64,000 nucleotides of DNA. Origin: Octopus vulgaris (Eukaryota). This document shows positions 2,327-64,000 of the stretch, piece by piece. The stretch covers positions 121,024,001 to 121,088,000 of the forward strand of contig OX597814.1 of the NCBI GenBank assembly GCA_951406725.2. The letters run 5' to 3'. The notes below the pieces were generated by a model. That model ran no database searches, was not told the DNA's origin, and worked only from the letters and a program-made list of their open reading frames with translations. Made by a program: the position numbers and the translations under genes. How positions within the stretch are numbered: position 1 is the stretch's first letter; each line of letters starts with the position of its first letter.

Positions 2327-2537
2327 GGCCTCTTGGAGCTAATCAGCGACAGTTTTAGTCTTATATTTATAGATTACCATATTAGTATGGCGATAACTAT
2401 TATTATCCAGTAACGCTGCCGTAATCTCCTTTAGAGAGACTTAGTAATTTTAATATTTCTATTATTGAAAACAAGTGGATGTATTCCACTGTAACTAGGT
2501 AAATAAAATCTTCGAACAGACGGTCAGTAGCGACACC
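2327..2537 (+). repeat. Retrozyme-like ~360-bp tandem unit, partial copy A
   Basis: GGCCTCTTGGAGCTAATCAGCGACAG...GTAACGCTGCCGTAATCTCC recurs at 4424-4528 and 6278-6417. The copy ends in TCAGTAGCGACACC. Confidence 0.8.
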
Positions 2538-4259
2538 CGCTTTTTGTTTTTGGTGACAGATATTTCTGATTGCGTTATTGTTGTGTAGCTGTATTTTTTG
2601 GCGTCGGAAAAATTTTGACTACGTTATTGTGGTGTAGCGGTTCGTGAGATCGAATCCGGTGGTGGAAGTTGTTACGGCGTGGTGAAGTTTTTGAGATTTT
2701 TTCACGAAAATGGAGACCCAGACGTATGCGGGTGCAGCAGGCAAGGGCCTGGTTGCGAAGGAGTTGCAGTTAGAAGAAGTCATCGTCGAGAAGGAGACTT
2801 TGAACAAGTATTTCGACAGCTTGAAGAGGGAGGTTGACTGTGTGAAGGTCACACCACCCGAAGAAGAAGCGGAAGAAGCGGAGAAACGGATTATAACGTA
2901 CAAAACATGGACCGTGACTTCGAAGAAAATAGAAGTGGCACCGATAGAGGAAGTTGAATGCTGTCTTAAAGGAATAGAAGCAGAGTCTACCTACTATAAC
3001 AGAGGTAGAAAGTTCGCAACGGTGGTCGTCCACTTTAAAAGTGAAGACGAGGCGAAGAAGAACGCAACGAAAATTTTAAAAACTGATAGATGGATGTGTT
3101 TACCAAGCTACTGCGGGAAAAGGGCAGTCAGAATAAGAATAAGCAAGATTTCGCCCGAACTAAATATGGAAAGGATTTTAGCAGCAGTGGTGTTTAATTG
3201 CAAAGAAAACGTGGAAATGTTGAAAGTCGAAAAATCAAAAGATGTAAATTGGTGGGGTTATGCAGTGCAGGCGTTAGTCCACATTACAATGCCTGACCTG
3301 TATAACATCCCGGAGGAGTTGGTGTTCCCCGACGAGACACGTCTCAGAGACGTGGTGGAGGGGAGACCCTCAGTGTGTCACAAATGCAAAATAAGAGGCC
3401 ACATGAAGGATGTGTGTCCGCTGAGAGAAGAACAGGAGAAAACGATAGTACTGGAGACTTTAACGAATGAGTTGCAAGATGCGTGTGTGGAGGAGGGAGA
3501 AATCGTTACTATAGATAATGCGGAAAGTGGTGAAGAGTTGGAGAGAGAAAATAGAAAAAGAACGCGGGTGGAATCACCACCCAAAGAACAAAAAAAGAAG
3601 AAGAAAAAAGCGAAAAACAAGATTACTGACGAGAAGGAAAACCGAACGGGAGAAGAGGATACAAAAGCAGAAGTGAGTGAACCGCTAAAAGCAGTTGAAG
3701 AATGGGACAGAAAATTGAAACAGCAGTTGAAAGCTTGTAAGAGAGGAGGAGGACTCAAGGGAAAGAAACACAGAGTGGCAATGTTATACGACAAGGACTT
3801 AAATTTGGAAAAGATGTTGCCAGGTAGGAAAGACTTAATTAGAGTAAAGTTGACCCCAGGAATATTTGATAAATATTGGAAGGCGGTAATAGTGGAGAAA
3901 GAGACGGTACGCAAATTGAAGGAATATAGCGCATTTGAATGGTTATATTTACGTTATGACACCTTACCAGCTGATGTGGATCAAGAAGGCTTACTAGAGT
4001 ATATAACAGACGAAAGACCAGTCTATGCTGACGAGTACCCGACGTAGCAGAGTAATATATGTAATTGTAAAATTGTAAATTGTGAAATTGTAATTTAAAT
4101 GAAACTGCGAGCTTTGGGGGGCTCGTAAGCCGTTCCATCTCATCCATTATAAATATCCATTTCAATTCATAATTTTCGATTTTTTTACTTTATGTACCCC
4201 ACGTCCTGTCTTGTAATGTCCCCTCTTAATTCGGGCCTTAGTGCCTATAATAAAGATTT
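2538..4259 (+). mobile_element. ORF1-only (non-autonomous) Tx1/L1-like retroelement, copy 1
   Basis: Flanked by direct repeat (T)CAGTAGCGACACC at 2524-2537 and 4259-4272. Contains a single ORF, a 3' UTR ending ...CCTATAATAAAGATT, and no RT or endonuclease. Confidence 0.7.
2710..4047 (+). CDS. Tx1/L1-type ORF1p (Gag-like nucleic-acid-binding protein, RRM-like region plus CCHC zinc knuckle), 445 aa
   Basis: Uninterrupted ORF. IPEELVFPDETRLRDVVEGRPSV-CHKCKIRGHMKDVC is Cx2Cx4Hx4C in a Tx1/ZCCHC3-like context. Basic NLS-like stretch RKRTR...KKKKKK. Confidence 0.8.
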   Translation: METQTYAGAAGKGLVAKELQLEEVIVEKETLNKYFDSLKREVDCVKVTPPEEEAEEAEKRIITYKTWTVTSKKIEVAPIEEVECCLKGIEAESTYYNRGRKFATVVVHFKSEDEAKKNATKILKTDRWMCLPSYCGKRAVRIRISKISPELNMERILAAVVFNCKENVEMLKVEKSKDVNWWGYAVQALVHITMPDLYNIPEELVFPDETRLRDVVEGRPSVCHKCKIRGHMKDVCPLREEQEKTIVLETLTNELQDACVEEGEIVTIDNAESGEELERENRKRTRVESPPKEQKKKKKKAKNKITDEKENRTGEEDTKAEVSEPLKAVEEWDRKLKQQLKACKRGGGLKGKKHRVAMLYDKDLNLEKMLPGRKDLIRVKLTPGIFDKYWKAVIVEKETVRKLKEYSAFEWLYLRYDTLPADVDQEGLLEYITDERPVYADEYPT

Positions 4260-4539
4260 CAGTAGCGACACCTGCGGGTCTGACTACGCTGCATTGATAA
4301 AGGGCAACAAACATGAAACATGTCTGCAGATGTCTGACTAGCAAGATGAAGCGGCTGACCTCCCCTGTTCGAAGGTTTGTAATGGACGCAGGTTCGTGTG
4401 TCATATAGCTAGCTAGAGGCGGTGGCCTCTTGGAGCTAATCAGCGACAGCTTTAGTCTTATATTTATAAGACTGCCATATTAGTATGGCGATAACTATTA
4501 ATATCCAGTAACGCTGCCGTAATCTCCTAGGTAAATAAA
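4260..4539 (+). repeat. Retrozyme-like unit, copy B (deleted at its 3' end)
   Basis: Highly similar to 6117-6417 and 2327-2505. Contains a hammerhead. Confidence 0.8.
4289..4329 (+). ncRNA. Type I hammerhead ribozyme, U3-A8 core variant, stem II damaged
   Basis: CTGCA-TTGATAA-AGGGC AACA AACAT-GAAAC AT GTC^TGCAG. Stem I is CTGCA/TGCAG. Stem II has three mismatches relative to the 6144 copy. Confidence 0.7.
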
Positions 4540-6116
4540 GCGTTATTGTTGAGTCGAAGTTGTGAGATCGAATTCGTTGGTGGAAGCGTTTGCGGCGCTG
4601 GGAATTTTTTTCTCAAAAATGCAAACCCAAACGTATGCGGGAGCGGCAGGCAAGGGCCTGGCTGCGAGCGAACTACAGTTGGAAGAAGTTACAGTCAAGA
4701 AGGAGATTTTGAAGAATTATTTCGACAGCTTGAAGAGAGAAGGTGACTGTGTGAGGATCACACCACCTGAAGAAGAAGAAGCGAAAGATTCAGAGAAACG
4801 TATTATAACATACAGAACGTGGAACGTGACTTCAAAGAAAGTAGAAGTGGCACCGATAGAGGAAATTGAGCGCTGTCTGAATGGAGTTGAAGGAGAACCT
4901 ACTTTCTATAATAGAGGTAGAAAATACGCAACAGTGGTCGTTCATTTTAAAAACGAAGACGAAGCGAAGAAGAACGCCACGCAAATACTGAACACAGAAA
5001 AATGGATGTTATTACCAAGTTATCGTGGAAAAAGGGCAGTAAGAATACGAATCAGTAAGATTTCGCCGGAGCTGAACATGGAAAGAATCTTAGCGGCAGT
5101 GGTATTCAACTGCAAAGAAAGCGTTGAAATATTGAAAGTAGAAAAATCGAAAGATGTACAGTGGTGGGGTTATGCGGTGCAGGCTTTGGTTCATATAACC
5201 ATACCAGACCTGTATAACATCCCAGAGGAGTTGGTGTTCCCCGACGAGACTCGACTCAGAGTCGTGGTGGAGAGGAGACCACCAGTGTGCTACAAGTGTA
5301 AAATTAGAGGCAACATGAAAGATGTGTGTCCGACGAGAATATTGGAAGCTCTGACAGAGATATTGCAAATGGCAGATGAAAAATGTGTAAACACAGAAAA
5401 TGAGGAAAGTGGTGACGAGTTGGAGAAAGGAATGGAAAACACAGAAGGAAAAGTAGATAGAAAGAGAGCGAGGGTGCAATCACCACCTAAAGTTCAAAAA
5501 AAGAAAAAAGCTAAAAATAAGACAATAGACGAGATGGAAGATCGAACGTGCGAAGATAAGAATACAAAAGCGAAAGCGAGAGAACCGGCAAATTTAACGG
5601 CAGACCAAGAATGGGGAAGAAGAGTGAAAGAGAAGTTAAAAGTATGTAAGGAAGGAAGAAGACCCGAAGGAAAAAAATCTTAAGGTAGTAATATTGTATA
5701 TGAAAGACAAAGAAATCGAAAAAAGACTGGCAGCTAAGAAAGGTTTAATCAGGGTTAGGCTGAATCCAAAAATATTTGATGACCAAGTGAAGTCGGCGGT
5801 TGTAGAGAAAGAGACATTTATAAAATTGAAAAGTGTGTTTTCGACTGTTTGTGAAATGCAATATATCCGTTATGACAGTTTGCCAGCGATTGTAGACCAG
5901 GAGAAGTTAATAGAATACATTACAGATGAACGCTCAGTATAGCAGAACTGTATTTTAAATGAAACTACGAGTTTTGGGGGGCTCGTAAGCCATTCCATTT
6001 AATTCATTACAAATAATTCATTTTCATATTTTTCGATTTCTTAAATTTATGTACCCCATGTCCTATTTTGTAATATCACCTCTTAATTCGGGCCATCGTA
6101 CCTATAATAAAGATAA
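4540..6116 (+). mobile_element. ORF1-only Tx1/L1-like retroelement, copy 2 (5'-shortened)
   Basis: Paralogous to 2538-4259. Same 3' end (CCTATAATAAAGAT) abutting TAGCGACACC of the next repeat unit. Confidence 0.7.
4619..5942 (+). pseudogene. Second ORF1p paralogue. One +1 frameshift in an A7 run (~5671-5677), and knuckle His replaced by Asn.
   Basis: MQTQTYAGAAGKGLA... aligns with copy 1. Knuckle reads CYKCKIRGNMKDVC. ORF 5694-5942 matches the copy 1 C-terminus (RYDSLPAIVDQEKLIEYITDER). Confidence 0.8.
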
Positions 6117-6412
6117 TAGCGACACCTGCGGGTCTGACTATGGTGCATTGATAAAGGGCAACAGCCCTGAAACATGTCTGCAGATGTCTGACTAGCAAGG
6201 TGAAGAGGCTGACCTCCCCTGTTCGAAGGTTTGTAATGGACGCAGGTTCGTGTGTCAAATAGCTAGCTAGAGGCGATGGCCTCTTGAAGCTAATCAGCGA
6301 CAGCTTTAGTCTTATATTTATAGACTACCACATTAGTATGACGGTAACTATTAATATCCAGTAACGCTGCCGTAATCTTCTTTAGAGAGACTTAGTAATT
6401 TTAATATTTCTA

Positions 6413-6417
<5 letters not shown>
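6117..6417 (+). repeat. Retrozyme-like unit, copy C, ending in (TA)n
   Basis: Direct repeat of 4263-4528 and 2327-2465. Confidence 0.8.
6144..6182 (+). ncRNA. Type I minimal hammerhead ribozyme, U3-A8 variant, apparently intact
   Basis: TGCA-TTGATAA-AGGGC AACA GCCCT-GAAAC AT GTC^TGCA. Perfect 5-bp stem II, palindromic ACATGT stem III, GUC cleavage triplet (cut after 6178). Confidence 0.85.
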
Positions 6418-8547: not shown

Positions 8548-8592
<45 letters not shown>

Positions 8593-8596
8593 TACA

Positions 8597-10025
8597 CAGG
8601 CGGTGTCCTCCACTATCCATGATCGCATCTCCTCCTCCCGTCCCCCCACCGCCTCCAACCTCATTGTCCGCACCACTCGCACCCCCACAATAACCTAACA
8701 ACCCTGATCGCCCCAGCATCTCCTACAACTGCCCCACCGAACTCATCTCCAGATATCTTGACCGTGTCCTTGACCCCTAGCGGCTTCCCTCCTCTCTCAC
8801 ATCTATGACACCAACCATGCTCGTCGTCTATTCAGCCCTTTCTCCGTCCCTCCAGGCCCCTCTAAACTTCTCTTCACTCTTGACATCAAGAGACTATACA
8901 CAGTGATCCCTCACCACGAGGTGCTTCGGGCACTCCATCACTACCTTGATCTTCGACCCAATCCTCAACCTGACACATCCACACTTCTTCGTCTGGCCGA
9001 ACTTGTTCTCTCGCTTGACTGCTCGTTCACGGGTGATTTTTACCAGCAGGTTTCGGGTGTGTCCATGAGATCGAGAATGGGCCCCAACTATGCGAACATG
9101 CTCGTTGGCTACGTTGAGGCCCAAATATTCTTAAGTTTCACTGGCCCCACTCCCGAATAATACGGTCGTCATATTGACGACGGTATTGGTGCGACCTCAC
9201 TCTTCTGCGAAGAACTAGCCTTCTTCCTCTCTTTTGTCAAATATTTCCATCCTGCCCTCCACTTCTCCTGCACTATTTCCAACACTTCCGTCGCCTTTCT
9301 CGATATTTCGGACAGCATTCATCACTGCACTCTCACTACCTCTATGTACTACAAACACGCAAATACCTCAACTTCTCCTCCTCCCACCCTAAATACACTA
9401 ATCTCTCTATCTACTATTCCCAATTATTCCATCTGCGCAGGCTCTGCAGTGACAACCATGACTTTGAGACTCAATCTCAACTCCTGGCTCGCTACTTCAT
9501 CCTACGTGGGTATCCCCTCACCACTATCCACACCGCCCTTGCAAGAGCGTTTTGCGTAGACCGTGCATCTGCTCTCTACCCTCGCACCCCCCGTCACTCG
9601 TCTCCCGTTTCCCATTACCTACCACCCCTCTACCCTGCCTCTCTAATGCACATTTTCTGAGCCTTCCAGTGATTCCAGTTCGACCCCCCCACTTTGCACA
9701 TCTTCTCTAACCGACTCAGCCCCTCCTTCAAACGAACCCACAACATACGTGATCTCCTGGTCCACAGTTTCTACCCAAACCCAACCTCCCCAACCGGCTC
9801 GTTCTCCTGCTCTCGCCCACGCTGGAGCACTTGCCCTTACCTCTCCAACACCACCATCCTCAAAGGCACCCATCATCGACCCTATAATATCACTGACTCC
9901 TTCACCAGCACTTCTAACAAGGTCATCTACTGCATCACCTGCTCTCTCTGTCCTTCTCTGAACATCGGCCAAATGGGACGCCGCTTGGCTGACCGGCTCG
10001 CGAAAGACCTCCGAGACATTTCCGC
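8597..10025 (+). mobile_element. Degenerate Penelope-like element (Neptune-like): RT plus GIY-YIG
   Basis: LLRLAELVL...YQQVSGVSMRSRMGPNYAN (PLE RT). CSRPRWSTC, then VIYCITCSLC...IGQMGRRLADRL (GIY-YIG). Multiple stops and frameshifts. Confidence 0.85.
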
Positions 10026-35357: not shown

Positions 35358-36059
35358 CATATATGAACCGGATCCTTGAAACACATACCATCATTAAAAG
35401 TAAACGGCAACCAAAATCCTTGAAAAGGATTTTAACCCAAGCTACACTGCACTCAACATCAACCACAAAACCAGCAGTTAGAAAATGTGGAAGGCCCACC
35501 CTCGGAATCTGTGTCATCTTGAAAGAAGGATCAGAATTTATACTGGAACAAGGCCACCAGTTCACCATTAGAACAAACTTCACCTGCGCATCAGAAAACT
35601 TAATTTACGTCATAACATGCGCAGGCTGCAATAGGCAGTATATAGGCCATACAAAAAATAGCTTACGTAACAGGATGGCGGTGCATAAATCACAAATTAG
35701 AAACCCTGATTACCGCAAAATACCGGTCAGCGGACACATAGATAGATGTGCTGGAAATGTAAATCCGAACTTTACAACTAACCCGCTCTATAAATTCAGT
35801 GACAACGCAACCTTCACACAACGCCAAAATAAAGAACTATATTTCATAAAAAAATTTAGACCAAGTTTAAACACCCTGGGCCAGGAATACTAAAACAAAA
35901 GATAAGTCCTCCGAAAAGGAGAAGCAAAATTCCACCACGACCGCTACTTTAAACAGACACTCGCTCTGACGGAAATATGCCTTAGTAAAAAAAGGAAAAA
36001 AATTCTTTCGTGCAAATCTGACCCTGATACATACGATACAGCTAAGGGTCAGACCCGAT

Positions 36060-53779: not shown

Positions 53780-54086
53780 TGTATTTTTGTATTTTTATAC
53801 GTGCTACATCACCTGTTTTTCCGTTCTTGTTTTCGTATACATTCGATGCTTTTTTCCAAGGAATCTAATGCTCTTAGTTTAGTTTTTTTTCTTGGGGCTG
53901 GCTAGATTGGAGCAATCTGAAGGTTAATCAGCCGAAATTGCGAGGATGATCCGGTTCTTGACTGAGGATAAACAGCTTCGAATGACCCGTCCTTGTTTTT
54001 CTTTTATATCGTCTATCTGGATGTTTTGTTGTCCCCTTTTTGTATCACCTAGTTGTACGGATGTTTTGCGTTCTTGTCCCAATTTG

Positions 54087-54125
<39 letters not shown>

Positions 54126-54128
<3 letters not shown>

Positions 54129-54290
54129 GCAGGAGTAGCTGTGTGGTAAGTAGCTTGTTTACCAACCGCATGCTTTCGGGTTCAGTCCCACTGCGTGGCA
54201 CCTTGGGCAAGTGTCTTCTACTATAGCCTCGGGCCGACCAAAGCCTTGTGAGTGGATTTGGTAGACGGAAACTGGAAGAAGCCAGTCGTG
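54126..54290 (+). mobile_element. SINE head (duplicated at 57895-58056)
   Basis: GGCAGGAGTAGCTGTGTGGTAAG...GGGTTCAGTCCC. Confidence 0.88.
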
Positions 54291-54329
<39 letters not shown>

Positions 54330-54849
54330 GTGTGAGTGTGTGTGTGTGTGTGCGTGTGTGCGCGCGTGTGTGTGTGTATGCATATATGTATATACATAAA
54401 TACACGCATACATATACGCATATATACACACACACATACATACATACATACATACATACATACATACATACATACAATACAATACAAAGATATTCTTGAG
54501 TGACAGTTGGAAATAGACGTTTGAGAGTAAAGAATTTCAGATGATATGTTTTTAGGCAATAGCTATTACTAAATGCAAAAAAAAAAATCTAAGTGGAAAA
54601 GAATAATCGTATCGATCGGGGAAAGCTTAAAAAGTATGCAAAAATGTACATGTAGTTATAGAGAGAATAAGGATTGCATTGGCCTCTTAAATTGTCATGG
54701 GATAATGAATATTTTAATGGAATGTGTAAGATCAGCAAACAGTACAAGAAATACATGCTGTTTGTTCCATACTAAGGGATAAATAAATCATATTTAATTA
54801 TACTATGCAGCACACATAGACGCACACCAGCATGTACAAACACAGATAC

Positions 54850-57452
<2,603 letters not shown>

Positions 57453-57795
57453 ACATAAGGGGGATCAGCCATCTGAATGTGGCTAGGGTCAGGGCGGGGT
57501 GGTGGGGGTGTTACTGATGCATTTAGCGCCAGGCGAACATCAACGTATACGTTGATGCTTTTTTCCAAGGAATCTAATGCTCTTAGTTTAGTTTTTTTTC
57601 TTGGGGCTGGCAAGATTGGAGCAATCTGAAGGTTAATCAGCCGAAATTGCGAGGATGATCCGGTTCTTGACTGAGGATAAACAGCTTCGAATGACCCGTC
57701 CTTGTTTTTCTTTTATATCGTCTATCTGGATGTTTTGTTGTCCCCTTTTTGTATCACCTAGTTGTACGGATGTTTTGCGTTCTTGTCCCAATTTG

Positions 57796-57836
<41 letters not shown>

Positions 57837-57847
57837 TGAATTGAAGA

Positions 57848-57897
<50 letters not shown>

Positions 57898-58056
57898 GCA
57901 GGAGTAGCTGTGTAAGTAGCTTGTTTACCAACCGCATGCTTTCGGGTTCAGTCCCACTGCGTGGCACCTTGGGCAAGTGTCTTCTACTATAGCCTCGGGC
58001 CGACCAAAGCCTTGTGAGTGGATTTGGTAGACGGAAACTGGAAGAAGCCAGTCGTG

Positions 58057-58095
<39 letters not shown>

Positions 58096-58101
58096 GTGTG
58101 A

Positions 58102-58140
<39 letters not shown>

Positions 58141-58614
58141 TATGCATATATGTATATACATAAATACACGCATACATATACGCATATATACACACACACA
58201 TACATACATACATACATACATACATACATACATACATACAATACAATACAAAGATATTCTTGAGTGACAGTTGGAAATAGACGTTTGAGAGTAAAGAATT
58301 TCAGATGATATGTTTTTAGGCAATAGCTATTACTAAATGCAAAAAAAAAATCTAAGTGGAAAAGAATAATCGTATCGATCGGGGAAAGCTTAAAAAGTAT
58401 GCAAAAATGTACATGTAGTTATAGAGAGAATAAGGATTGCATTGGCCTCTTAAATTGTCATGGGATAATGAATATTTTAATGGAATGTGTAAGATCAGCA
58501 AACAGTACAAGAAATACATGCTGTTTGTTCCATACTAAGGGATAAATAAATCATATTTAATTATACTATGCAGCACACATAGACGCACACCAGCATGTAC
58601 AAACACAGATACAT

Positions 58615-60221
<1,607 letters not shown>

Positions 60222-60302
60222 TCCCGGGTTGATTCGGGGTTAACCACAGTAAGTAAGGTACTCAATACATAGCAGAGTAAAATTAATTTATTATATAGAA
60301 GG

Positions 60303-60353
60303 AGCTTCTACAGGACTAGTACTGTTTCATTCAAGAGAAATCTTCAGGAAGCT
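60303..60353 (-). ncRNA. Type I hammerhead ribozyme with full stem III
   Basis: Reverse complement of 63268-63318. Confidence 0.85.
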
Positions 60354-60737
60354 ATTTAACAAGAATTGTATTAGCATTTATACATTTAGAGGAGTGGTGG
60401 TGGGGGACTTTTTGGGGGTAGGCATAGCGCAAAATATCATACTTGGGGGGAGTGGTCAAGGTAATAAAAAAAATAAAAAAATAAAAAATAAAAAAAAAAA
60501 TAAAAGAATAAAAATAAAAAATATAAAAAATATAAAAAATATAAAAAATATAAAAAATATAAAAAATATATATAAAAAAATATATAAAAAAATATATATA
60601 TATAAAATATATATATAAAATATATATATATAAAAAAAAGGGGGGAAAGAGTTATAGGTAAATAAGGAGATTCTCACTTATACCTATACACACATGAATA
60701 CGTATCTACACACACATACGCACATACACATATATCT

Positions 60738-60794
<57 letters not shown>

Positions 60795-61172
60795 CCTACA
60801 CATACACACATACATACATACAAATATACATATACATACATATATATACAATCCAATACAGGCCCATTCCCTAATTTTAATTTTATTATCTTCATTTATT
60901 ACTTTTGTTATCTTTGATCGCTAAGGCTAAGAATCCTGGCAATAGCTGCTTGTCCGTTTGTCTGTCTACTAGAAGGCAAGTACTCATTCCCGCACGCACA
61001 CTCATTAGCACGTACATTCACCCATTCGTACACTCATACACATACACGTACGCACGCGTTATATTCATACATACAAACATCTACATACGTTCACGTATAT
61101 ACACATACGTACTCGTACCTACAGATTCGTGTCTACACTTTAGGAGGCTAGTCTATACATATACACCAATAA

Positions 61173-61204
<32 letters not shown>

Positions 61205-61254
61205 CGCACATACATACACACACACACATATATACTCCTACATACAGATACATA

Positions 61255-61304
<50 letters not shown>

Positions 61305-61730
61305 TATATACATACATACACATACATACACATACACACATACACACATACACACACATACATACACATATATATACATACCCAAACATATATACACACG
61401 CATATATATACATACACACATACACACATGTATATATATGTATATATGCATGCGTATGTGTATGTACATGTAGGTATGTATGTGTGTATATGTATATATG
61501 TCTATAAATGTGAGTATGTAGTAATATAAGTATATGCATGTGTATGTATGGGTATGTGTATCAGTGTATATGTATATATGTATATGTGTGTGTGTATGTA
61601 TATGTATGTATATGTGTATATATGTATGCGTATATGTGTATATATATATATATGTATATATATATATGTGTATATGTGTGTGTACGTATGTGTATGTGTA
61701 TGTATGTGTATATGTGTCTATGTATGTATA

Positions 61731-61796
<66 letters not shown>

Positions 61797-62075
61797 TGCG
61801 TGTGTGTATGTATGCATATATGTATGTATGCATGTATATGTGTATGTATATATATGTGTGTAAGTGTGTGCATATATGTATTTGTAAGTATGTGTGCGCG
61901 TATGAGTATGTATGTATGCTTGCACACGTGTATATATATATGTGTGTGTGTGTATTTATATGGATGCGCGTGCGTGTGTGCACGTGTATGGGTACGCATG
62001 TATATGTGTATGTGCGTGTATGCGTATACGTGTATGTATGTATGTGTGTGCGTAGATTTGTATATGTATGTGTGA

Positions 62076-62114
<39 letters not shown>

Positions 62115-62324
62115 TATAGATGGGTGTGTGTATGCGTATAAATGCATGTAAGTATGGATGTATAGATGTATGTATGTATGTATACGTATGTATGTGTGTA
62201 TGTGTGTATGTATATATATGCGTGTGTATATATGTTTGGGTATGTATATATATGTGTATGTATGTGTGTGTATGTGTGTATGTGTGTATGTGTATGTATG
62301 TGTATGTATGTATATATATATGTA

Positions 62325-62368
<44 letters not shown>

Positions 62369-62827
62369 TATGTATCTGTATGTAGGAGTATATATGTGTG
62401 TGTGTGTATGTATGTGCGGGTATATATATATATATATATATATGTATATTTATTGGTGTATATGTATAGACTAGCCTCCTAAAGTGTAGACACGAATCTG
62501 TAGGTACGAGTACGTATGTGTATATACGTGAACGTATGTAGATGTTTGTATGTATGAATATAACGCGTGCGTACGTGTATGTGTATGAGTGTACGAATGG
62601 GTGAATGTACGTGCTAATGAGTGTGCGTGCGGGAATGAGTACTTGCCTTCTAGTAGACAGACAAACGGACAAGCAGCTATTGCCAGGATTCTTAGCCTTA
62701 GCGATCAAAGATAACAAAAGTAATAAATGAAGATAATAAAATTAAAATTAGGGAATGGGCCTGTATTGGATTGTATATATATGTATGTATATGTATATTT
62801 GTATGTATGTATGTGTGTATGTGTAGG

Positions 62828-62884
<57 letters not shown>

Positions 62885-63267
62885 AGATATATGTGTATGT
62901 GCGTATGTGTGTGTAGATACGTATACATGTGTGTATAGGTATAAGTGAGAATCTCCTTATTTACCTATAACTCTTTCCCCCTTTTTTTTATATATATATA
63001 TTTTATATATATATTTTATATATATATATTTTTTTATATATTTTTTTATATATATTTTTTATATTTTTTATATTTTTTATATTTTTTATATTTTTTATAT
63101 TTTTTATTTTTATTCTTTTATTTTATTTTTTTATTTTTTATTTTTTTATTTTTTTATTACCTTGACCACTCCCCCAAGTATGATATTTTGCGCTATGCCT
63201 ACCCCCAAAAAAGTCCCCCACCACCACTCCTCTAAATGTATAAATGCTAATACAATTCTTGTTAAAT

Positions 63268-63318
63268 AGCTTCCTGAAGATTTCTCTTGAATGAAACAGT
63301 ACTAGTCCTGTAGAAGCT
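63268..63318 (+). ncRNA. Type I hammerhead ribozyme with full stem III
   Basis: AGCTTC-CTGAAGA-TTTC TCTT GAAT-GAAACAG TACTAGTC CTGTA^GAAGCT, with AATAAA ~10 nt downstream. Confidence 0.85.
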
Positions 63319-63329
63319 CCTTCTATATA

Positions 63330-64000
<671 letters not shown>

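Follow-up and report, generated by a model that had tools for sequence, protein, structure and literature searches.

Introduction

HAL1, HeT-A and Ag-Sponge are elements that carry one ORF1-type protein (ORF, open reading frame) together with the 3' end of a long interspersed nuclear element (LINE), lie between target-site duplications and show purifying selection (PMC5786205). In a 64,000-nt stretch of the Octopus vulgaris genome (assembly GCA_951406725.2, contig OX597814.1, positions 121,024,001 to 121,088,000 of the forward strand; hereafter the window) we found two copies of an ORF1-only element with the same properties, located in a tandem hammerhead ribozyme repeat. It differs from the three described elements in that its ORF1 is only 24-27% identical to that of its putative LINE partner, in that it shares the position-specific targets of this partner, and in that it apparently lacks its own promoter.

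LINEs of the Tx1 clade combine an apurinic endonuclease-like (APE) domain with a reverse transcriptase (RT), prefer multi-copy genes or transposons as targets, form tandem arrays and mobilise passengers (PMC4494074). The octopus lineage agrees with them in these features, mobilisation of passengers being likely. Described targets are Tx1D for Tx1L, U2 for Keno and Mariner-N4 for Tx1-Mar, and transcription from the flanking target has been discussed (PMC4494074). Whereas these families, in the accounts available, use one target class each, the lineage described here occupies many unrelated targets at one promoter-relative position. A preference for position relative to transcription initiation rather than for sequence is found in Ty3 and DGLT-A (PMC6673722; PMC6101501); these, however, are long terminal repeat (LTR) elements that use an integrase and polymerase III factors, whereas here a LINE and polymerase II promoters are involved and contact with a factor is conjectural.

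The repeat that receives the insertions compares with non-LTR retrozymes and the pseudo-LTRs (pLTRs) of Penelope elements (PMC7229834; bioRxiv 10.64898/2026.07.22.740005; PMC4209133; PMC11167929). Like these, it consists of tandem units with a type I minimal hammerhead of the U3-A8 variant, ends preferentially at two 3' sites, lands in AT-rich sequence and shows 5' inversions. Retrozymes are described in these sources as non-coding, whereas here a protein-coding passenger of 1.6 kb forms part of one array variant, which was copied with it to four loci. The available part of an octopus repeat annotation reports active L1-Tx1 families and does not mention their targets (PMC13282606). Full-text searches, largely of openly accessible papers, gave no description of a LINE that targets polymerase II start sites. 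Nesting of Tx1 elements in small nuclear RNA (snRNA) genes and transposons, transcription from the flank and start-site positioning of LTR elements at polymerase III genes are known already. Our analysis covered TATA-type targets that lack the snRNA motif, a background of off-target insertions and the composite of repeat and passenger at four loci.

We consider it quite probable that the two copies belong to a group of ORF1-only elements likely moved in trans by the partner, and that this lineage hits U1 and U2 genes at their first bases and other promoters, among which that of the hammerhead repeat is the commonest, at their likely polymerase II start. A wider reading, towards which we lean slightly, is that the LINE lineage with its protein-coding passengers would read the polymerase II initiation site itself, i.e. 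the +1 of snRNA- and TATA-type promoters regardless of their sequence, as a non-LTR counterpart of Ty3; retrozymes would then be its main landing pads and could carry a passenger as a hammerhead-bounded protein-coding unit.

Insertion sites of passenger and partner

Passenger (the ORF1-only element) and partner share their 3' end and their sites, leave target-site duplications of 11-20 bp and are located at defined positions relative to the +1 of U1 and U2 and to TATA motifs and motifs resembling the proximal sequence element (PSE) of snRNA promoters. Genome-wide we found 59 exact 3' ends of the passenger, all of which were inspected and assigned to target classes by eye. The landing repeat of the window (family A) accounts for 18 of them, within about 5 nt; 20 and 4 are located at two further hammerhead groups, one at a fourth hammerhead-like repeat, one at U2 and one at a TATA promoter.

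At snRNA genes the start site is certain. A pattern search for the +1 of U2 returned six junctions on three chromosomes, one of them from an ORF1-only copy, and none with the reversed pattern as control. Keno inserts at an internal U2 site; the one internal U2 motif included in our pattern search gave no junction. The partner is found at the +1 of full-length U2 genes with the native U2 promoter upstream. An insertion at the +1 of U1 was predicted beforehand, and one was then found among three pattern matches, again with the U1 promoter upstream. Among the 30 best loci of each gene, one U1 gene and two U2 genes carry insertions.

For the remaining targets, empty sites were rebuilt from 240 ends, 136 of which had a duplication; after dropping 20, 76 unique non-tandem sites remained. 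A TATA motif at -36 to -24 is present in 15.0 of the 24 target families, while the 13 control windows gave 0.3-7.3. With related targets merged, the value is 8.6 of 15 groups (p = 1.5e-5; controls 0.1-4.8), and when hammerhead repeats and U2 are excluded, 7.8 of 12 (controls 0-3.6). The hammerhead families A-C additionally show a PSE-like motif at -55 to -60, as do U1 and U2, while TATA-only targets score low for it. With a matrix derived from the U1 and U2 promoters of the same genome, the motif of family A in the window scores 6.8 (control window -0.8), which is weaker than in families B and C. As a separate observation, ATCAGT occurs at -56 to -61 in the U1 and U2 promoters of all 56 loci tested (L244-L303).

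Over the 24 target families no base consensus was found, and in 20 of them a hammerhead core is absent within 100 nt. A comparison of 19 endonuclease domains showed up to 98.7% identity between those located on different targets. The tree of 75 passenger copies requires 18 changes of target label (minimum 6, shuffled 49), and different subfamilies are mixed in arrays in which element, duplication and element follow each other. The subfamily of the U1 insertion (92% identical DNA) is otherwise located at a relative of family A that is unlike U1. If the RNA starts at the +1 of its donor site, some leaders are expected to open with the first bases of another target; three such leaders, for the most part picked by eye, begin with the +1 sequence of a different target family (L111, L021, L146) and likely record the promoter from which the RNA was transcribed.

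Behind a TATA box in a Helitron-like repeat, ORF1-only copies that are almost identical form young arrays with up to five members (L093, L107, L108, L147-L152, L159, L170), which are stacked before another ORF1-like family. In L108 the duplication of one insertion already starts with the TATA box, about 30 nt ahead of the position otherwise used. A promoter family with CCAAT and TATA serves as a target in L022, L095, L100, L143, L179 and L230; it is probably a Gypsy LTR, since L143 runs on into a gag-like ORF.

Organization of the locus

The sequence TCAGTAGCGACACC has exactly two matches in the window, at 2524 and 4259, one on each side of copy 1, and the pair encloses an element of 1,721 nt. 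The random occurrence of this 14-mer at a given site is about 2e-9. A search of the window located AATAAAGAT at 4249 and 6106 and TAGCGACACC at 6117. Copy 2 ends with AATAAAGA-TAA at 6116, directly followed by TAGCGACACC, and its junction lies 4 nt into the target used by copy 1. Its 5' duplication is absent; instead the 5' end is joined to a deleted repeat unit at 4524-4547. At the DNA level the elements end at AATAAAGA plus 2-4 nt on the 3' side, and at the duplication. The first-pass annotation of this stretch had taken the paired 14-mer for a target-site duplication around copy 1, which the search bears out, and had put the 3' end of copy 2 within about 3 nt of the same position, where the target is indeed the same and only the offset needs correction to 4 nt. 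The features are, in order (all on the + strand):

2327-2537: 5'-truncated hammerhead-repeat (retrozyme) unit of family A with predicted promoter, 93-95% identical to the other two units
2468-2479: predicted motif resembling the snRNA proximal element, at about -55 (matrix score)
2500-2508: TATA-like box TAAATAAAA, 26 nt upstream of the predicted +1 at 2526 (inferred start site)
2524-2537: 14-bp target-site duplication, 5' copy (sequence repeat), with TCAGT at its start, which we take to be initiator-like
2538-4258: copy 1, full-length ORF1-only LINE derivative with T-rich leader, ORF and 3' untranslated region (UTR) ending in AATAAAGA-TT
2710-4047: ORF1, intact, 445 residues, with two RRM-like domains, a CCHC knuckle, a charged linker and a conserved C-terminal part (structure model, RRM matches)
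4259-4272: target-site duplication, 3' copy (sequence repeat)
4259-4547: repeat unit with deletions, joined to the leader of copy 2 at 4524-4547 (junction recurs at four loci)
4289-4329: type I minimal hammerhead, U3-A8 core variant, palindromic helix III, damaged stem II, predicted cut after 4324 (motif parsed by hand)
4540-6116: copy 2, ORF1-only, other subfamily, with shortened leader, no 5' duplication and an ORF frameshifted near 5670
6117-6417: final repeat unit, which stops at TTTCTATTA, one of the repeat's two common 3' end sites, and is followed by a (TA)n tract
6143-6183: type I minimal hammerhead, stem II intact, with cleavage predicted after 6178 and activity predicted only (motif parsed by hand)

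The ORF1-only element and its partner LINE

The ORF1-only elements measure 1.6-1.7 kb between duplications, hold one ORF and have their own AATAAA; a protein-to-DNA comparison with the partner gave no ORF2 match within 2538-6116. We classify both copies, on the basis of their sequence, as ORF1-only derivatives of an L1/Tx1-type LINE, i.e. as HAL1-type passengers. For ORF1 a fold with two RRM-like domains and a CCHC knuckle is predicted (predicted local distance difference test, pLDDT, 81; RRM structure matches). A Pfam scan of both window ORFs returned no named family and a word-indexed protein search with the window ORF no match; a HMMER protein search gave 320 relatives, all without names, and an atlas search gave CCHC/ZCCHC3-like leads only. 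In the genome, ORF1 has 150 scored matches from 12,772 candidates.

The ORFs of the two copies are 78.5% identical at the nucleotide level (998 of 1272 aligned nt) and their 3' UTRs share 143 of 165 nt. The ORFs are thus more diverged than the repeat units, which within the window are about 93-95% identical, as had been stated for the locus before. The C-terminal half of copy 2, previously described as rewritten, is homologous to that of copy 1 beyond a frameshift of one base, located in a run of A near 5670; the chromosome-10 paralog of copy 2 has one A fewer in this run. The comparison of synonymous and nonsynonymous changes that the first-pass annotation had suggested was carried out and points to purifying selection, with a dN/dS of 0.11 between the copies (dS 0.78, dN 0.086, 239 codons) and of 0.04-0.12 against three other subfamilies. 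Joints between subfamilies inside the ORF1-only element, from recombination or template switching, were seen in L003 (2776-2822) and L102 (3785).

Two ORF1-only copies are preceded by the terminal part of a LINE ORF2, and the 3' end of this LINE resembles theirs. This partner has intact ORF2 frames of 1134-1148 residues with an endonuclease (PF03372), an RT (PF00078) and a C-terminal zf-RVT (PF13966), all above cut-offs; the best PDB match is human L1 ORF2p (E 4e-66). By endonuclease, RT and C-terminal zinc finger its sequence places it in the L1 group of LINEs. An ORF1 with a CCHC knuckle is a feature of the Tx1 clade; the zf-CCHC of the partner ORF1 reaches 20.2 bits, below the cut-off of 20.8, and the targets that the partner prefers are, as in Tx1 elements, multi-copy genes or transposons. 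From such features we regard the Tx1 label as likely, with no named Tx1 reference among the matches. The window ORF1 matches that of the partner with tblastn E-values of 4e-21 and 8e-24, and the low identity given above, also seen in the alignment, implies that the split between passenger and partner is old. Copies of both are interleaved and stacked at one single site, and from the shared ends and sites it is likely that ORF2 of the partner mobilises the ORF1-only element in trans.

The landing repeat

The landing repeat is a tandem unit with a period of 362 nt and about 2,600 first-look candidates genome-wide. Empty units, whose existence the first-pass annotation had anticipated, were recovered: among the 29 best unit loci outside the window, five contain the exact empty-site string, and none contains an element end or sequence of the ORF1-only element (ORF or 3' UTR). 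Counted from the first base of the duplication, the hammerhead core starts after 35 nt and the predicted cut follows after 65 nt. The ribozyme is part of the landing repeat and not of the ORF1-only element. Hand parsing identified in each unit a type I minimal hammerhead with U3-A8 core and palindromic helix III (31 motifs in the 29 loci); Rfam reported no hammerhead at the gathering score, nor at E up to 10. Stem II reads AGGG/CCCT in 23 of the 31 motifs, whereas in the hammerhead between the two copies of the window it is damaged (AGGG/ACAT, 2 of 4 pairs). The combination of U3-A8 core and palindromic helix III has been reported for Penelope elements, and minimal hammerheads of this kind cleave poorly and act as dimers (PMC4209133). 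Predicted monomer folds covering the two 3' ends and the two hammerheads were not more stable than shuffled sequences (z -0.03 to 1.55).

When mapping the ends of repeat arrays, 72 of 98 3' breakpoints fell into two 15-nt bins (44 and 28), mostly preceding (TA)n. Penelope RT initiates internally at two sites and uses AT-rich targets (PMC11167929), with which this pattern fits. The bin that holds the predicted hammerhead cut contains 2 of 98 3' breakpoints and 2 of 72 5' breakpoints. By its sequence the landing repeat is a non-LTR retrozyme, for which self-cleavage and circular RNA are predicted only. Of an autonomous Penelope element with the 362-nt unit as pLTR only a GIY-YIG fragment beside a family-A unit was seen (L005/L101), no dedicated genome search having been made. 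Elsewhere in the window, at about 8590-9700, translations show a decayed coding sequence with a Penelope-like RT and GIY-YIG, which we presume from its motifs to belong to the Penelope family; at 35363-35893 a GIY-YIG-like ORF of 176 residues is probably the end of a Penelope element and matches fragments in L171, L005/L101 and L149.

Probable spread of copy 2 with the repeat

The fused 5' junction of copy 2 is present at four loci on chromosomes 1, 9, 10 and 15 (control 0), and its 3' junction is the same at three chromosomes. The locus on chromosome 10 is 94.5% identical to 4259-6417 of the window over 2,169 nt, has the same end site before (TA)n, and carries an empty unit in place of copy 1. 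Because the fused junction recurs on four chromosomes and a paralog without copy 1 exists, copy 2 was, judging by these junctions, copied along with the retrozyme array rather than inserted here independently. The ends suggest that a Penelope-type enzyme is likely to have copied the array with copy 2 into the TA tract. Copy 1 stems from another insertion, before or after the array moved here, at the start of the preceding unit. The suggestion that two subfamilies had arrived independently at one site therefore holds for repeated targeted insertion, as seen in the 18 ends at family A and in the mixed arrays, and fails for the arrival of copy 2. Two hammerheads at a distance of 1,854 nt flank the copy-2 composite and may process its RNA; the DNA junctions are silent on RNA trimming. 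A view of copy 1 as an integral part of a protein-coding retrozyme was discarded in light of its own duplication and the paralog without it.

Proposed mechanism and alternative explanations

In the mechanism we propose, ORF2 of the partner would make its first nick in the template strand, a few bases ahead of +1. Its guide would probably be the initiation complex or the open promoter, not the sequence. Reverse transcription would begin at the AATAAAGA end, and a second nick about 15 nt downstream would create the duplication. The inserted element would come to lie behind an intact promoter and be transcribed from it without need of its own, so that the element likely borrows host promoters. 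As each insertion would rebuild the site for the next one, tandem arrays would follow. Since subfamilies cluster by target, host sequence at the RNA ends may in addition pair with the DNA and probably bias each subfamily to its own target family.

Several observations weigh against targeting of initiation sites. Fourteen of the 59 passenger 3' ends are located at unrelated sites; 13 of these copies are 5'-truncated (estimated from chained BLAST), and none of the five unrelated sites with a clean duplication has a TATA box. From both it follows that a background of untargeted insertion exists and that targeting is a preference, not a rule. Full-length partners were also found inside a Gypsy pol frame (L225, 6225) and, at a distance from +1, in the interval separating two U2 genes in inverted orientation (L366, 8577). 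The U1 insertion has no duplication and about 10 bp are deleted. The +1 is certain for U1 and U2 only, other starts being inferred, and the TATA test covers mostly full-length copies in an AT-rich genome, with 20 junctions filtered and two nested sites dropped. Targets are mostly multi-copy mobile repeats, which spread their cargo. An automated search for leader remnants yielded one convincing case in 76 sites, and the motif ATCG-N5-YGG is common to U2 and family C, which sequence recognition could explain.

The last point belongs to an alternative that we regard as unlikely, in which each subfamily has a loosely sequence-specific endonuclease assisted by pairing of the RNA 3' end, and start sites are hit as their initiator-like pyrimidine-purine steps fit. 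It would account for the clustering of subfamilies by target (18 label changes against 49) and for the many duplications that start near TC, and it accords with Tx1 elements, where the endonuclease is held chiefly responsible for target choice and targeting is reinforced by co-transcribed target RNA (PMC4494074). However, it is difficult to reconcile with the lack of a consensus over the 24 families, with near-identical endonucleases on unrelated targets and with the U1 insertion by a subfamily otherwise at a relative of family A, and the motif leaves the TATA box at -30 unexplained. We judge it distinctly improbable that insertion is near-random and that copies behind promoters were expressed and then multiplied by the host mobile repeat, mimicking targeting. 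The TATA and PSE-like boxes lie upstream, outside the element RNA, yet recur in unrelated target groups, partner and different subfamilies are stacked at one base, and the number of hits that random insertion would give at the +1 of U1 is about 0.002 (our estimate from 75 candidates x 6 nt, 20,000 insertions and 2.8 Gb). The 14 ends at unrelated sites, the composite copied to four loci and the mobility of most targets (retrozymes, Gypsy LTR, Helitron-like repeat) nevertheless agree with such a course.

We give the least credit, and very little, to the explanation offered by the first-pass annotation, in which insertion is directed at a single sequence ahead of the hammerhead and the ribozyme cuts read-through RNA and sets the element ends. 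That 43 of the 59 exact 3' ends are located at hammerhead-type units (families A-D) and that the composite between its two hammerheads was copied as a unit would suit it. Specificity for one sequence is contradicted by the use of three other hammerhead families, U2, U1 and TATA promoters, 20 of 24 target families having no hammerhead core. No element end coincides with the cut, the ends being those at AATAAAGA and the duplication described above, and array breakpoints avoid it (2/98 and 2/72). In addition the elements have their own AATAAA, the first hammerhead is damaged in stem II, and hammerheads of this minimal kind cut poorly and as dimers (PMC4209133). Two further ideas were rejected: that the junctions arose when reverse transcription jumped to a capped RNA template, with native promoters continuing upstream at U1, U2 and TATA sites, and a rule restricted to snRNA promoters, with TATA targets scoring low for the PSE-like motif.

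LINE target choice is usually ascribed to sequence preference of the endonuclease. Here near-identical endonucleases are located on unrelated sequences at one promoter-relative position, and position-based targeting becomes directly testable, with young intact partners making assays feasible. The junctions likely mark the transcription start of animal retrozymes, a point absent from the available text of PMC7229834, and the composite is an example of a retrozyme copied together with protein-coding cargo. If the reading is true, gene insertion would profit from a LINE able to position its cargo precisely behind endogenous promoters.

Other features of the window

On the minus strand at 450-1301 the window contains an RT fragment of 283 residues from an unrelated LINE, 28% identical to ORF2 of the partner. 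At 54800-64000 kilobase-long TA-rich arrays are located, and a short repeat is duplicated (54049-54465 and 57758-58237); this may partly be an assembly effect.

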